From positions 1 through 45,074 of the IMG/VR virus record IMGVR_UViG_2908567220_000008: a stretch of DNA of 45,074 nt; one strand, written 5' to 3'. Source of the DNA: a virus (Duplodnaviria > Heunggongvirae > Uroviricota > Caudoviricetes). The notes beneath the pieces were generated by a model. That model did not search any database. It was not told the origin of the DNA and saw only the letters and a program-made list of their open reading frames with translations. Made by a program: the position numbers and the translations under genes. The stretch's first letter is position 1. Every line of letters starts with the position of its first letter. Shown piece after piece: positions 3,483-10,152 of this stretch.

Positions 3483-3637
3483 TGCGCACCTCTTTTCGTG
3501 TCCAGCTCTTCAGCCAGCCGCTGAGCCTTTAACGGGTTTCTTACCACTTCACCAGATGGCATTAGCCAGCCACGATGGAGGACGGAGTACATGCACTTCA
3601 CTTTTCCTACGGTTATGGCGTCGCGGTAATGTTTCAT
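3479..3637 (-). CDS. Small hypothetical protein (52 aa), not in the ORF track
   Basis: Hand-translated [52 protein letters not shown]. Its ATG overlaps the exonuclease stop and its TGA overlaps the methyltransferase ATG. Confidence 0.4.
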
Positions 3638-4314
3638 TTCCACTGCTCCCCGAAGGTGAAACCGATCTCCGACAGCGATTCGTCCATCTTCTCGATGAAC
3701 TCCGGCACCATTTCGTTGAAGTCGGACATGTATTTGTCGTCGCGCTCAACAACCACGTGATGAATGCCTTCTCGCTTCATGCGAGGGTCATAATTCGCGA
3801 AATACCAGGCGTCCTTCCTGGTTACCCACATGCTGAATTGCACCTGGGCCATGTAGGCGGATTTGATAGCCTCGAAGCCGCCAAGCCGGAACTTCATGAA
3901 GTCGCGAGAGGTGAAAGGGCATTTCAGCTCAAGGCCGCGGCCATCACTGCACAGGCCGTCTGGTGAGCAGGCGGTGCGCATACTTTCGTCACGGAAAAGG
4001 ATCGGTGACTCCGTTACCTTCACGTCGGTGGTGAACTCAAACAGGGTTCGAGCGTCGGCCTCATACTGTTTTCCCCAGGCCAGCGCCTTGGCGTTAACTT
4101 CCGGCGCCGCGCCGGTGCATACCTCTGCGAGCAGCGTGTGGAAATAAGACATTTTCATGTCAGTCCACTTGGTGCCTGATCTCGGCTTCGAAATGACGTT
4201 ATGGACTTCCGAGGCGGTGATCACGCCCAGGCGTAAGCGGTGCCAGGATTCATCTCCCTGTTCAACGCGGGTAACGTCAATGCCAGTTCGTTCGAGGATA
4301 ATTTCTGGTGTCAT
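3634..4314 (-). CDS. YqaJ-like (lambda Exo-type) recombination exonuclease
   Basis: 226 aa; paired with and overlapping a RecT gene; sequence resembles YqaJ viral recombinase-family exonucleases (recalled). Confidence 0.8.
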
Positions 4315-5156
4315 GCTGCCACCTGCGCTTTTTTCTGGAGGAAGCTAAAGCCTTTCTGCGCTTCTTCTTCGGTGAGTTGTGATGCCTGGAAAATGTCACG
4401 CTTGAAGATGTTGCTGCACAGAGGCAGGAAGTCCTGCTCCCAGTCCTTATTCAGGGACGTCAGGAGGTCGGTAATTGCCTGCAACGTTTCCTCACTGGCC
4501 ACCAGGGGGAGCGCCTCTGTCGTGGTTCGCGGCGTTACGTCACGCGCATCAACTTCCAGTGTTTTACCTTCCATCTCTTCGGCAGTGGGCTGCTGGCCAA
4601 TTTCAGGCCACGCCTTACGCAGAGCCTGAGCCTCGGCACACTTCGCCAGCTGGCCATAGGGGCGCTTTTTCCACATTGCGTTTGGCGCGGTAGTGTCGCG
4701 GCCGGCGGTTGCGTAGTTCTCAACCCAGTATTCTTTCGCGCTGAATTCGACGATCTCCCCGCTGGGCATGCGCTTGCTGACCGTGTACTTGCACCATTGA
4801 GGCACGGTCACTTCAATACCGGTAAGCGTCAGAGTGACGTCCGGGCCGAACTCTGGTTCTTTTGCGCCAGCGTAAGAACCGGAGCGATCGGCCTGAATCC
4901 GATAAAGCCCGATGCCAGGCATAACCACATCGCGCCACTCGCTTTTTCCCGACTTCGAGTCCTTAACGCTCATTGGCACCAGATGAACGGGCTTAAGAAG
5001 CGGATCAAGGTTTCTGGCCCGGCAGTAGTCCAGTGCCATCATCACCGACTCATCCTTGGCGCCAGGGTAAATACTGTTTTTGAGGGCGCTCCAGGTAGCG
5101 CCGTCAATACCTCTCTCAGCAAGAGAGCCGGCTGTAATCACAAGTTCGTTAGCCAT
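4311..5156 (-). CDS. recT: RecT-family single-strand annealing recombinase
   Basis: 281 aa with RecT/Bet-like sequence, immediately upstream of the exonuclease. Confidence 0.85.
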
Positions 5157-5171
5157 TGTTATTCCCCAAAG

Positions 5172-5462
5172 TTAAAACGGGCAGCCGGTGCGGTGGTCCC
5201 AGTCATATTCCGCCTGGGCGTAAGCTACTGCCGAGATGAGATCGTTATATGCCTCGCCAGCTGCATCGCTGCGGAGGCCTTCGTATGGGCTTTTGTCCAT
5301 CGGCACAGAGAAGCGGAACAGGCCTGACGGCTCTTTCGGCAGGGCGTCGATAATTTCCTGCGCCCGATCGTCAATCCACTTTTGCTTCTCTTCGGTTAGC
5401 GACTGTTCAGCCCATTTCCTTTCTTCGATAGCGTCGTATGCGCGGTATGCGTTCATAAGCAC
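5172..5462 (-). CDS. Hypothetical protein
   Basis: 96 aa ORF inside the early-left operon. Confidence 0.5.
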   Translation of the reverse strand: MLMNAYRAYDAIEERKWAEQSLTEEKQKWIDDRAQEIIDALPKEPSGLFRFSVPMDKSPYEGLRSDAAGEAYNDLISAVAYAQAEYDWDHRTGCPF

Positions 5463-5463
5463 C

Positions 5464-6435
5464 TCAGTAACTGATACCGGTATGGGGAATGCGGCCGTCT
5501 TTAACCGCTGTAAGCACCTCGATAGCCTGATCCCGAGTAAGGCTGGTATTGGCCAGAAGAGCTTTGACGATTTCAGTGCCTACAGCCTTGCGGTGCTTAA
5601 CGTCGGCTTCGCGGCGAGCCTGCTCATCGGCTTTACGTTTCTCCTCAGCCAGGCGGGCCTGTTCGCGTTGCTCTGCCTCGCGGCGGATGCGATCGGCTTC
5701 TTCCTGAGCTTTGCGGCGCTCCGCTTCGATAGCGGCCTGCTTGTCAGCCTCAGCTTTCTTCTCGGCTGCAATGCGATCTCGCTCTGCCTGCTCAGCTTGT
5801 GCTTTCAACACAGCTTCGCGATGCGCCGCTTCTTCACGTTCACGCTGTGCGCGCTGCTCAACTTCTCGGGCTGCTGCGGCGGCTGCCATTCGCTTAATTT
5901 CTTCTTCATGGGCAATGCGCTGGCGCTCAGCCTCAGCTGCTTTATCTGCCTGCTCTCGGTCGAAAGCGTCATTCATCAGCATGGCCATTTCGTGGTCAGA
6001 CTCAATCCGAGCTGCCAGCTGCCGATCGAACTCTTCATTCATGGCCAGTGCTTCGACGTGAAGGGCGTTCATGGCTTCTTCGGCCTTAATGCGTTCCTGC
6101 TCCGCCTCCCATTCGGTCAACGGGCGACGCACTTCATCTTTCAGTGCATCGAGACGCTCACGGACAACGCGGCGGCTTTCATCAATCTGCTTTGGCAGCG
6201 CCTTCAGCTCAGCGACCAGGGCTTTACCTGCGTTGTCGATGTAGGTTTTAGAGCGCGCGACCTTGTGAGCCATGGATGCGATAGCATCGCGGCCTTTTTT
6301 GGTGGTCACGTCCGGCACCAGACTGCGAGCCTCTTTTTCGATCGCTTCGATAAGCGGATCGAGTTGGTCGTTATTGGTGAAAACCGCCATCGCGTTCTTT
6401 TTCTCGATGACGACTAAATCCATTATTTCGCTCAT
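5464..6435 (-). CDS. Hypothetical coiled-coil protein, Ala/Glu/Arg-rich
   Basis: 323 aa; central about 150 residues are low-complexity charged repeats (AEAERQRIAHEEEIKRMAAAAAARE...). Confidence 0.6.
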   Translation of the reverse strand: MSEIMDLVVIEKKNAMAVFTNNDQLDPLIEAIEKEARSLVPDVTTKKGRDAIASMAHKVARSKTYIDNAGKALVAELKALPKQIDESRRVVRERLDALKDEVRRPLTEWEAEQERIKAEEAMNALHVEALAMNEEFDRQLAARIESDHEMAMLMNDAFDREQADKAAEAERQRIAHEEEIKRMAAAAAAREVEQRAQREREEAAHREAVLKAQAEQAERDRIAAEKKAEADKQAAIEAERRKAQEEADRIRREAEQREQARLAEEKRKADEQARREADVKHRKAVGTEIVKALLANTSLTRDQAIEVLTAVKDGRIPHTGISY

Positions 6436-6522
6436 GGTTTCCCCTGAAATTTGGTTGTAAGAATCCCGGCACCGTATTGGCTGCCTGATAGCTCAGTTAA
6501 ATTCGTGCGCTGATATGCGCGG

Positions 6523-6717
6523 TTAATGCGTCCCGGCTGGAACCAGATTCGGCAGCAGGTCGCGTGCCTCAAATGCTTTGCGAATGTGGCGCAGGTTGCC
6601 CTGTGGCTCGAACCAGAAGGTTTCTTTCAGGTAGTCACGTGAAACCTTCCAGGTGGCGCCAGTTTTAGCGTTACGCATCATCACGGCGCGTCCGCTGTTA
6701 GGAATTGAGTTAGCCAT
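6523..6717 (-). CDS. Hypothetical protein
   Basis: ORF-track frame 6523..6753; start taken at the ATG at 6717 (MANSIPNSG...). Confidence 0.45.
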   Translation of the reverse strand: MANSIPNSGRAVMMRNAKTGATWKVSRDYLKETFWFEPQGNLRHIRKAFEARDLLPNLVPAGTH

Positions 6718-6820
6718 TGAACACCCCCGTAACGTGCAGAATTTTGATAACAACAGCCGACCAGATAACGCCGCAGATCAGCAGGCAGTAAATCAGTGAA
6801 CGAATGCCTTGTTTGCTCAT
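6710..6820 (-). CDS. Small hydrophobic peptide (36 aa), putative membrane protein
   Basis: Hand-translated MSKQGIRSLIYCLLICGVIWSAVVIKILHVTGVFNG; one predicted TM helix. Its ATG overlaps the stop of the upstream small ORF. Confidence 0.4.
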   Translation of the reverse strand: MSKQGIRSLIYCLLICGVIWSAVVIKILHVTGVFNG

Positions 6821-7393: not shown

Positions 7394-8212
7394 TTAGTTA
7401 AAATTAAGGCTTTTCCCGGCAGCGACTAACATATGATCGTAGTATTTAGACATATCTTCGCTACTTAGCAAGTTGAAGACATTGTCAGCATAACCTCCAA
7501 CCAAGTTAAGTTGCTGAGAGTGCGCTTTTTCCTGAGGTGTATCAGCAGCATAAACCACAAAAGTCTTCACGCAGTTATTCCACTTGGTCTTAGCTGCGTT
7601 TATTGTCACAGCTTTAAACGCTGACTCACCCATTTTTTGGCGATTATTGGAAATCCGTAGATCTAAGGTTTCAGTTAAATGATAAATTCCATTTTTTAGT
7701 AAAAGTTCAGCATAAAGACCTTCAGATTCAGAAAGCGGATACCCCTGAACCACTTTATGCTCGCTAATTTCCTTGAGATTCTTACCCATAACTCCTTCTT
7801 TTTCAAACCTATCCTTAAGCTCGGTAATAATTCTTTTTTGAGAAACTTCAGTTCTTTTCTTCGCTCGCTCAGGTGTTATGAATAATTTATTTAATTCATT
7901 GATTTTTAATTCATATTCACGTTCATTGGCAGCATGAAATGTACCTACGCTTGACAAGGCAAAGCTACCTTGGAAAAAGAGAGAAGCCTGTTCGATGCTT
8001 AAGCCAGAAGTTAAAATAGTCTCCAGTTGCTTCTGGCTATTTTCTAATGCTTCAAGCCCAAAATCATTTGTAATAGCTTTTAGTTTAGTAGGGGTTTCTA
8101 TGACGCGCACATCTGGGCCAGATGGCTTCATGACGACAAGGCCAACGTTGATTGTCTCGGCGCGGACAGGGTTCGGTGTTATTCTGACAATACTGTATTT
8201 ATATGTATTCAT
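7394..8212 (-). CDS. DUF3037-like protein (272 aa), partner of the HipA-like kinase
   Basis: N-terminus YSIVRITPNPVRAETINVGLVVM resembles the DUF3037 family (from memory, needs HMM confirmation). ATG overlaps the kinase stop (ATGA). Visibly AT-rich. Confidence 0.6.
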   Translation of the reverse strand: MNTYKYSIVRITPNPVRAETINVGLVVMKPSGPDVRVIETPTKLKAITNDFGLEALENSQKQLETILTSGLSIEQASLFFQGSFALSSVGTFHAANEREYELKINELNKLFITPERAKKRTEVSQKRIITELKDRFEKEGVMGKNLKEISEHKVVQGYPLSESEGLYAELLLKNGIYHLTETLDLRISNNRQKMGESAFKAVTINAAKTKWNNCVKTFVVYAADTPQEKAHSQQLNLVGGYADNVFNLLSSEDMSKYYDHMLVAAGKSLNFN

Positions 8213-9033
8213 TTCAGCACCTCCCCTCTAACAGTGTCGATTCGTTTCATTCTGCCGTCGCTTGACCACCAGGTTAGCAGAGCATCCCTCTGCAAAGGAT
8301 TGATCCATGCTTCCGGCATGTCTTCAAAAATCCGTTCTATCGTGCTAGAGCTAATTCTGGATAGCTTATCCAATACAGCTTCCGCAGGCGCTTTACACGA
8401 AACATCATTATATGTCAACTGCTTGATCGCTTGCCAGCAGTTTGTGGTGTTGTAGCCCATTGGTATTAGGGCTGCGTCGGTTTTGTTCGGCCAACCCATA
8501 ACCATAGCTGCAAGGCTGAAATCGAAGGCTTGGATAGTCAGGTTTCCATATCGGTTCTTAGTGTACAGATAGTTACCAATATGCCTATCAATATTAAATA
8601 CGAACTGATCGAAGGCGTAAACTGACCATACTTGCTTCCGTAGAATAGAAGGTCCGGACATCAATTCAGCGGCAAAGTTAATTTCTTCTTGTGGCTTACT
8701 CATGGCAGCCAGGTCATATTTTGATCCAAAAAAGTGCTCTCCTGTATCCGGGTCAATCAAAACCCTACAGGCCGGGGTAGGAAGCCCACTAAATTCAGCA
8801 AGTTTAGTACATAGCCATTCTGATGCTGGAATTTGCTTTGGGTGGGGAATCCCTGTCAAAGCGGATGCATCACCATCAGAAACCCCTTTTATTGCATACT
8901 CTAAACCGTCGGAGGCCATAACTGTATGCCTTAGGTGAGCTGTGCCCATTGCTGGCTTATAATCCACAATCTCAAGACTAAACAAGGGTTCTTGAATAGT
9001 AATGTTCTTTTCAGGTTGTGAGTCTTCTTCCAT
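8209..9033 (-). CDS. HipA-like / CtkA-like atypical kinase-fold protein (274 aa)
   Basis: FNIDRHIGNYLY matches the N-x-D-x-H-x-x-N catalytic-loop pattern of HipA-family kinases (E. coli HipA has D-x-H-x-K-N). AT-rich coding sequence. Confidence 0.6.
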   Translation of the reverse strand: MEEDSQPEKNITIQEPLFSLEIVDYKPAMGTAHLRHTVMASDGLEYAIKGVSDGDASALTGIPHPKQIPASEWLCTKLAEFSGLPTPACRVLIDPDTGEHFFGSKYDLAAMSKPQEEINFAAELMSGPSILRKQVWSVYAFDQFVFNIDRHIGNYLYTKNRYGNLTIQAFDFSLAAMVMGWPNKTDAALIPMGYNTTNCWQAIKQLTYNDVSCKAPAEAVLDKLSRISSSTIERIFEDMPEAWINPLQRDALLTWWSSDGRMKRIDTVRGEVLK

Positions 9034-9342: not shown

Positions 9343-10041
9343 TTACCCATGCTTCCTGTACGTCTGCGGCATGCTGCCGATCACCTTGCCGAACACGAAA
9401 ACACGATTCATTTCGTCTTTCTCGATCGGGTCCCAGGCTGCATAGCTCTTGTTATCTGAGATAACCAGCAGCTTGTCCTTCATCTTCTGCAGGCGCTTGA
9501 CGTGAGCAGTGTCGTCGTACAGGAAGGCGTATATCCCGTCGCCGTCGAAGCTCTTAACGCTGATGTCGACGAACAGCAGATCACCCGGCTCAATCGTGCC
9601 GGACATGCTGTCACCCCGGACGTTGATGATCCGGATGTTCTCAGCCTTACGCCCATCGAACATGTGCCGGGCTTCAGCTGGCTCATACTCAACAGAACGG
9701 AGAATCTCGACGAACTCCTGGTTCACGATGCCCGGCCCGGCACTAACCATAAGGTCCAGCACATCAATCCTGAATGCATCAGTATCCTGGCTTTTAACCT
9801 GGGCAGCGCGAGGGAGCTGGCCGTCATCGCGCATCGGTCCATTTCCGGTTGATAACCATTCAGACCTGACGCCCAAAGCATTAGCTATCTCGACAATTTT
9901 TGTTGAACCCCTGGCGTTTCCACTCACCAGGCGCCAAATGGTTGGCTGAGCAATACCTGAGGCCTTCGCAAGCGCCCCTTGTGACATTCCAGCCGAAGCC
10001 ATGGCCTCGTTTAAACGATCTGCAAGAGTTTCTTTTTTCAT
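9343..10041 (-). CDS. cI: CI-type phage repressor (HTH_XRE plus S24 LexA-like autopeptidase)
   Basis: N-terminal HTH (MSQGALAKASGIAQPTIWRLVSG) and C-terminal S24 signature (VRGDSMSGTIEPGDLLFVD ... VKRL). Start taken at the ATG at 10041; the track ORF begins at a TTG at 10104. Confidence 0.85.
   Translation of the reverse strand: MKKETLADRLNEAMASAGMSQGALAKASGIAQPTIWRLVSGNARGSTKIVEIANALGVRSEWLSTGNGPMRDDGQLPRAAQVKSQDTDAFRIDVLDLMVSAGPGIVNQEFVEILRSVEYEPAEARHMFDGRKAENIRIINVRGDSMSGTIEPGDLLFVDISVKSFDGDGIYAFLYDDTAHVKRLQKMKDKLLVISDNKSYAAWDPIEKDEMNRVFVFGKVIGSMPQTYRKHG
9347..9372. repeat. Direct repeat copy 2 (authentic 3' end of cI)
   Basis: ccatgcttcctgtacgtctgcggcat, encoding the last residues of CI (MPQTYRKHG). 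Confidence 0.7.
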
Positions 10042-10152
10042 AATCTCAAATTTATACGCTTGCGTATTACTGGTCAAAACACGTTTTGCTATTGCTAAAA
10101 CCAATACGCATTGCTATTATCATTTTGCACCAATACTTATAGGAATTGGAAC
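10042..10152. promoter_or_regulatory. Divergent cI/cro operator-promoter region (OR-like)
   Basis: Intergenic region between divergent cI and cro containing GCTATTGCTA (10088-10097) and ATTGCTATTA (10110-10119) next to CAATACG. Confidence 0.5.

Follow-up and report, generated by a model that had tools for sequence, protein, structure and literature searches.

The window examined here is the whole 45,074-nucleotide stretch held as IMG/VR virus record IMGVR_UViG_2908567220_000008 (positions 1 to 45,074; Caudoviricetes), which is a complete lambdoid prophage. The second gene of its early-left (pL-type) operon lies at positions 5464..6435 on the minus strand, heads the recombination module, and encodes a 323-residue protein running from ATG to TGA. 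By profile match and alignment, this protein is a member of the Agt/Mog family of phage phi80 (PHROG 1376), which also includes Sf6 gp33 and D3 Orf53. As judged from the gene order of related loci, the family is an optional accessory cassette that heads annealase–exonuclease modules of every annealase type. The protein itself carries a long charged helix between two conserved end domains, and there is about an even chance that it serves as an accessory two-ended tether or ruler with a single-helix spacer, moderating the harm done by GamL in this prophage.

Organization of the Early-Left Operon

The Agt-like gene is preceded by a ribosome-binding site that can be read directly from the sequence (6436..6450, minus strand), consisting of GGGGA and a 4-nt spacer before the ATG. 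Upstream of it on the same strand lies a small early gene of 76 residues (6523..6753) that matches phrog_3722. The next gene downstream is gamL (5172..5456, minus strand), which encodes a 94-residue, phi80-type inhibitor of host nucleases (RecBCD/SbcCD). Its product matches the NCBIfam equivalog NF033500 phi80_GamL with 141.5 bits (cutoff 40) as well as phrog_1050, and is 47% identical to phi80 GamL. It is followed on the minus strand by a RecT-family single-strand annealing protein (4311..5156; Pfam RecT, E=2.2e-27; phrog_2449) and a YqaJ/lambda-Exo-type exonuclease (3634..4314; Pfam YqaJ, E=1e-30; phrog_149).

The Agt-like gene is co-transcribed with gamL and the recombination genes. Only 7 nt separate its stop from the gamL ATG (5456), and the TGA itself (5466-5464) overlaps the GAGGTG Shine–Dalgarno sequence of gamL (5457..5466, minus strand), so translational coupling of the two genes is suggested. 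The first-pass annotation had placed the gene next to the RecT/exonuclease pair. It does share their operon and lies upstream of both, but gamL intervenes.

Coding Status and Family Membership

The same annotation had described a translated early-operon protein whose coding assignment was unconfirmed by homology, and profile and cluster searches now supply that homology. The product matches phrog_1376 from end to end (E=6.6e-101, protein residues 1-323 on profile positions 1-362 of 362), and residues 1-161 used as the query retrieve 5,273 clusters at E<=1e-3, of which 3,926 remain at E<=1e-10. Clusters are counted as 50% identity representatives drawn from 1.84 billion proteins. Compared with relatives of 85-97% identity, differences fall mainly at third codon positions of the minus-strand Agt frame, and the overall ratio of nonsynonymous to synonymous substitution rates (dN/dS) is 0.16-0.24. 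By part, dN/dS is 0.02-0.08 for residues 1-105, 0.21-0.27 for residues 161-280, and 0.03-0.12 for residues 281-323. Because the homology is to the minus-strand product and the substitution pattern follows the same frame, the coding assignment is confirmed, and the open reading frame (ORF) is, on this comparative evidence, a real gene under purifying selection.

On its own the gene is ordinary: it recurs in E. coli genomes and has a named relative in phi80. Of 5,426 complete E. coli genomes, 58 contain the region at 95-100% nucleotide identity, and in these the gene is labelled either “coiled-coil domain-containing protein” or “hypothetical protein”. One such copy, in a prophage beside yecE in strain ST361, carries the former label from PGAP. 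Agt proteins are found in 187 GenBank phage records, among which Pseudomonas (58) and Vibrio (49) phages are the most numerous. The family-level picture is the part worth keeping, that of a very large, widely mislabelled family linked to RecT/Bet/Erf and exonuclease genes, which despite its 5,273 clusters has no Pfam or NCBIfam model.

The phi80 record (GenBank JX871397) describes PHI80_40 as “agt, anti-toxin for Gam; Mog (modifier of Gam)”. It is followed there by gamL, noted as “toxic without Mog”, and then by recT and exo. Rotman and colleagues (2012) reportedly describe the toxic gamL as having an antidote of its own, agt, which apparently encodes a modifier protein. The phi80 (Lula) and window proteins are of nearly equal length (322 versus 323 residues), belong to the same PHROG, share a three-part layout, and are encoded at the same place in the pL operon, just before gamL-recT-exo. 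They are 52% identical over residues 1-176 and about 48% overall. The C-terminal 43 residues, in contrast, are only about 24% identical and represent another C-domain allele. Antidote activity is reported for phi80 only and would extend to the window protein by orthology. The literature searched, which did not reach the primary paper on phi80, contained nothing on the function of Agt (modifier of Gam), of GamL, or of TolA together with RecT.

The Sf6 gene 33 protein and D3 Orf53 have the same architecture, align with the window protein end to end, and are likewise products of early genes upstream of Erf. Their surroundings differ from those in phi80. In the Shigella phage Sf6, no GamL follows gene 33, the RecBCD modifier is Abc2, and cIII and kil lie between gene 33 and erf. 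In the Pseudomonas phage D3, Orf53 directly adjoins Erf (Orf53-Erf-YqaJ), and the region shown has neither GamL nor any recognisable anti-RecBCD gene.

Association with Annealase–Exonuclease Modules

Agt loci were compared across 80 IMG/VR sequences, four phage records, and the window. Downstream of Agt, 71 of these 85 loci have an annealase (RecT, Bet, or Erf) within 3.5 kb. The association extends to distant phages with other gene orders, including Agt-Bet(-Exo) in Acinetobacter phage TCUAN1 and Alcaligenes phage Piluca, Agt-ExoVIII-Bet in Shewanella phage 1/41, Agt-x-ExoVIII-x-Bet in Serratia phage Eta, and Erf-x-Agt in Vibrio phage 1.132.O.

Most of the Agt loci without an annealase carry GamL, a 170-residue phrog_21613 protein, and an exonuclease. 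The phrog_21613 protein (167-170 residues) occupies the slot between gamL and the YqaJ-type exonuclease, 295-534 nt past the Agt stop, in nine loci (L012, L015, L020, L035, L043, L052, L061, L072, and L079) whose modules contain no recognisable annealase. It is a candidate for an unrecognised single-strand annealing protein.

A comparable slot exists in Firmicutes phages, in which DUF1351, gp157, DUF2483, or Mu-Gam-like genes lie directly upstream of any annealase family, a “common localization” that “implies their analogous function” (PMC8093625). In Oenococcus phage phi9805, for instance, gp48 (308 residues) precedes Sak4-SSB. The products of the DUF1351 (PF07083)/Sipho_Gp157/DUF2483/Mu-Gam-like genes, which precede Erf, Sak4, RecT, or Red-beta, are similar to Agt in size; DUF1351, however, lacks the long ER/K core of Agt, and the likeness is positional only. 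None of 98 Agt members matches PF07083. Homology to DUF1351 likewise found no support in hhalign, which gave a probability of 0.5% and E=0.12 against a shallow DUF1351 alignment of five sequences, an outcome that a deeper profile could change.

These associations raise a broader reading in which the Agt family is a general, partner-independent mediator of annealase–exonuclease recombination in Proteobacteria. This is possible rather than probable. Under it, the protein could be a two-headed tether with a single-helix ruler, connecting some component of the host or the DNA with the site of recombination, as the counterpart of the Firmicutes DUF1351/gp157/Mu-Gam slot. The “antidote to Gam” effect in phi80 would then be a by-product. 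If this were true, Agt would be a hitherto missing accessory factor, with a potential bearing on recombineering efficiency and host range.

Relation to GamL

The phi80 labels for agt (“anti-toxin for Gam”) and gamL (“toxic without Mog”) lend themselves to a narrower reading in which Agt specifically binds GamL, neutralising or retargeting it by direct contact, and in which this is the purpose of the family. Gene spacing agrees with such a pairing: of the 84 related loci, 47 have a GamL-like ORF that begins 2-11 nt after Agt, as does the window, where the Agt stop also runs into the gamL ribosome-binding site. The distribution of the two genes, however, makes a dedicated antidote unlikely. In about 45% of cases the gene after Agt is not GamL but Arf, phrog_7311, phrog_856, phrog_1723, a cIII-like ORF, or the annealase itself. 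Alleles 95-100% identical to that of the window work with and without GamL neighbours, since they precede GamL and RecT in the window, GamL and Bet in loci L007 and L008, and Arf in loci L009 and L010.

The converse distribution was assessed in 75 IMG/VR loci (drawn from L093-L173) that encode a GamL at least 95% identical to that of the window and have sufficient upstream sequence. Agt lies upstream of GamL in just 23 of them, and the other 52 have no Agt gene. In 30 of the GamL loci the cassette is missing outright, with a phrog_3722 homologue directly before gamL and no Agt between them (28 at a distance of 89 nt and two at 81 nt). Among GenBank phage records, GamL occurs in 129, all of them enterobacterial, and the Pseudomonas, Vibrio, and Acinetobacter hosts of Agt are absent from its matches. 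Sixty-two of the 129 are Stx2a phages, which are not among the organisms listed for Agt matches. Phage TL-2011c has the order kil-hyp-gamL-recT-exo-ssb and likewise carries GamL without Agt. The small ORF before gamL in that phage, gp21, was compared as a potential Agt remnant and is unrelated.

An obligate toxin–antitoxin pair, in which the toxin does not occur without its antidote, is thus not what is found, since GamL is common without Agt. On these distributions Agt is not a dedicated partner of GamL, and “anti-toxin for Gam” cannot be the general role of the family. The prevalence of GamL without Agt also sits oddly beside the phi80 note “toxic without Mog”.

Domain Architecture

The window protein comprises an N domain (residues 1-105), an amphipathic helical segment (106-160), an ER/K-type helix (161-280), and a C domain (281-323). 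In a family alignment of 98 diverse representatives, both anchor residues that delimit the linker, P105 and H281, are kept in 79. The first-pass annotation had described ordinary N- and C-terminal regions on either side of the core, and they prove to be conserved end domains. The linker between them ranges from 142 to 278 residues (median 185; 175 in the window protein). The N domain spans about 105 residues and ends in RxPLxxWE, and the C domain is 42-43 residues long across the family, starts with the conserved histidine, and terminates in I-x-Y (I-S-Y in the window protein). By alignment, the three-part layout is shared with the phi80, Sf6, D3, Vibrio, and Acinetobacter proteins.

The nearly invariant residues are L7, F19, D42, T45, G48, R49, S54, A56, K63, G70, K71, K78, D85, R88, L95, R103, P105, L106, and E110. 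On the long helix of the N domain, 10 of the 11 conserved residues checked, lysines and arginines included, cluster on a single 120-degree arc when plotted on a helical wheel. Scans against Pfam, NCBIfam, and PADLOC with the whole protein, the 98 homologues, and the isolated N and C domains gave no consistent match. A hit of HHH_5 to a single C domain was below threshold (E=0.019) and is not evidence.

The alleles of the two end domains reassort independently of each other. Relative to the window protein, the Agt of locus L023 is 42% identical in the N domain and 98% in the C domain, and that of L044 is 89% and 24% identical, respectively. Such reassortment is seen in the related loci L023, L043, L044, and L046, with Agt at about 6001-6969 in L023 and L043 and elsewhere in L044 and L046. 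The low-complexity core may serve as an intragenic recombination joint. A search for homologous proteins returned mostly near-identical Klebsiella and E. coli entries, many of them partial (110-280 residues), and PHROGs lists the N-terminal part (phrog_17211) and the C-terminal part (phrog_21365) as families of their own. The low-complexity core thus seems to be a frequent point of interruption in assemblies or gene calls.

The Charged Core

A long Ala/Glu/Arg/Lys low-complexity core had been noticed in the first-pass annotation, and it is present at residues 160-280, a stretch of 121 residues in which every 30-residue window contains at least 83% A/E/R/K/Q. Residues 106-285 (180 residues) contain neither proline nor glycine. 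The length of about 150 residues given earlier is a fair middle between these two measures. The core is 53% charged and 27% alanine, with a net charge of -2, and only 9% of its residues are L/I/V/M/F/W/Y (11 large hydrophobics in 121). Opposite-charge pairs at i/i+3 and i/i+4 number 54, compared with 32.8±4.5 in shuffled sequences (z=4.7), and charges alternate along the core in blocks with a period of 7-8 residues. The same character holds in the cores of 79 diverse homologues, which have medians of 13% hydrophobic and 50% charged residues and an ion-pair z above 2 in 91% of cases.

The heptad-like repeats that the first-pass annotation described are not borne out. Hydrophobic periodicity at 3.5 residues is absent from residues 160-280 (z=-1.0), and none of the periods from 3.0 to 4.2 residues reaches significance in residues 161-280 (P=0.53) or in either predicted helix arm and residues 106-285 (P about 0.5-0.7). 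The best a/d register in the core is 12-25% hydrophobic, whereas a heptad seam would need about two in seven. Tandem Repeats Finder detected no DNA repeat unit in the gene. Among the 79 homologues, the heptad period reaches z>2 in 3%, or in 1% when a hydropathy-scale measure is used. Given the few hydrophobics, the lack of a heptad period, and the excess of i/i+3 and i/i+4 opposite charges, the core looks like an ER/K single alpha-helix (SAH), not a heptad coiled coil.

A profile search of PDB sequences returned low-complexity charged-helix matches only (Zuotin, DDRGK1, and the lever arms of myosins VI and X). The ER/K SAH domains of these proteins, which in myosins VI and X form lever-arm extensions, resemble the Agt core in composition, low hydrophobicity, and excess of i/i+4 salt bridges. 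In contrast to them, the Agt core is unusually rich in alanine, and a third of Agt homologues have a weak 11/3 apolar stripe. The analogy is one of physical type only and does not imply common ancestry. If correct, it would make Agt a rare example of an ER/K single-helix spacer from a bacterial virus.

The core could alternatively be an oligomerising coiled coil, as the first-pass annotation had proposed, or an intramolecular antiparallel helical hairpin that joins the N and C domains into one head. Several observations point in this direction. The AlphaFold2 (AF2) model (mean predicted local distance difference test score 86) has two long helices (residues 46-186 and 198-296) with a break of low confidence between them, and its best Foldseek matches are antiparallel helical bundles, although these are weak and no solved fold is matched. 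The segment preceding the core, residues 100-160, reaches 50-62% hydrophobic occupancy in its best a/d register. A weak Ala/hydrophobic stripe of 3.65 residues (z>2) is present in 38% of homologues, and in the homologue average alanine and hydrophobics show a hendecad-type stripe of 3.67 residues, the z of which is inflated by shared ancestry. The window protein, however, is without the stripe, its core has neither a hydrophobic seam nor a heptad period, and the helix break falls at an A6 run that contains no proline or glycine and is not conserved in the alignment. A coiled coil or hairpin is therefore quite unlikely.

Proposed Role of Agt

In the favoured reading of Agt as a two-ended tether or ruler, the charged helix would hold the two end domains apart as a semi-rigid spacer, which if fully extended would reach about 18-26 nm at most. 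The likeliest ligand of each end is one common to all settings in which the family occurs, for example DNA or recombination intermediates, or a host protein such as a nuclease or SSB. Such a common host or DNA target is preferred over a specific phage partner because nearly identical copies precede GamL and RecT, GamL and Bet, and Arf (with or without Erf). Interaction with host factors, which the first-pass annotation had raised, is a possibility that these gene orders favour indirectly. From its orthology with phi80 Agt, the protein in this prophage most likely tempers the damage that GamL does to the cell during the block of RecBCD/SbcCD, either through direct contact with GamL or through action on the same host target. 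A true recombination accessory factor would be relevant to recombineering toolkits.

Several points weigh against this mechanism. It is inferred from architecture alone, and searches of domain libraries and structures found no binding partner, DNA-binding motif, or known fold. The only functional statement on the family consists of the GenBank note on phi80 together with the 2012 abstract. The tempering of GamL cannot be an essential role, because GamL very often exists without Agt. Finally, the AF2 break at residues 187-197, from which confidence rises symmetrically on both sides, could mean that the helix folds back as a hairpin and does not form an extended spacer.

A different role would be that of a counter-defence accessory that blunts a host system sensing phage recombination proteins or the inhibition of RecBCD, with relief of GamL toxicity as one manifestation. 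Agt does show presence/absence polymorphism in otherwise near-identical early regions, it is located among early-left host-takeover genes (kil, cIII, ral, and gam), and its independence of any one partner suggests a host target. Nevertheless, it is tightly linked to annealase and exonuclease genes in non-lambdoid phages as well, which favours a role in recombination itself, and nothing observed speaks for a sensed defence system. Nor has it any similarity to PADLOC models, which describe defence-system and not anti-defence proteins. Counter-defence is decidedly improbable as the explanation of the family, and the two-ended tether is retained.

Database Labels and the Antisense Reading Frame

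Homologues of Agt are variously labelled as TolA, cell envelope biogenesis protein, putative tail-fibre protein, major outer membrane lipoprotein, and IgA-specific serine endopeptidase. Such labels seem to derive from the low-complexity helix. Domain II of TolA is indeed a similar long Ala/Glu/Lys-rich helix; Agt, in contrast, is a cytoplasmic early phage protein without an anchor or the TolA C-terminal domain. In the window protein there is no transmembrane segment (maximum 19-residue hydropathy 0.78; longest run free of D/E/K/R/H/Q/N, 7 residues), and TolA was rejected in the absence of a membrane anchor, TolA domain III, or a Pfam domain of any kind. In one paper, a phage “TolA” is treated as an auxiliary metabolic gene (PMC10520572). 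On the opposite strand, an antisense ORF of 393 residues (5236-6417, plus strand) covers Agt entirely and gamL for the most part. This shadow ORF results from GCN/GAR/CGN codon bias in the genes of the minus strand, which both substitutions and homology favour. Although GenBank labels and a long opposite-strand ORF do exist, it is hardly credible that the gene encodes a TolA-like envelope protein (or auxiliary metabolic gene product), tail fibre, or lipoprotein, or that the antisense ORF is the true gene, since the resemblance behind the labels is confined to the low-complexity helix and the gene lies in the early-left operon, not in the structural region.

Other Features of the Prophage

Beyond the phrog_3722 gene, a promoter-like site lies at 7032-7004 and a strong intrinsic terminator at 7378-7359, both on the minus strand, and the cI-type repressor is encoded at 9343-10104 on the same strand. 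Downstream of the YqaJ-type exonuclease, the minus strand carries DUF1317, an MT-A70 methylase, and then an ORF (1-1260) that occupies the place of the integrase in the ST361 prophage. The putative structural genes of the window are assigned by size and position.

The slot of lambda rexAB, which lies here between the cI repressor and the region of the early-left promoter, holds genes for a DUF3037 protein (7394-8212) and a HipA-like kinase (8209-9033), both on the minus strand and overlapping by 4 nt, with the terminator at 7378-7359 after them. The pair has weak PADLOC matches to the candidate system PDC-M66B/A (E=6e-7 and 0.0019), which suggests a prophage defence moron.

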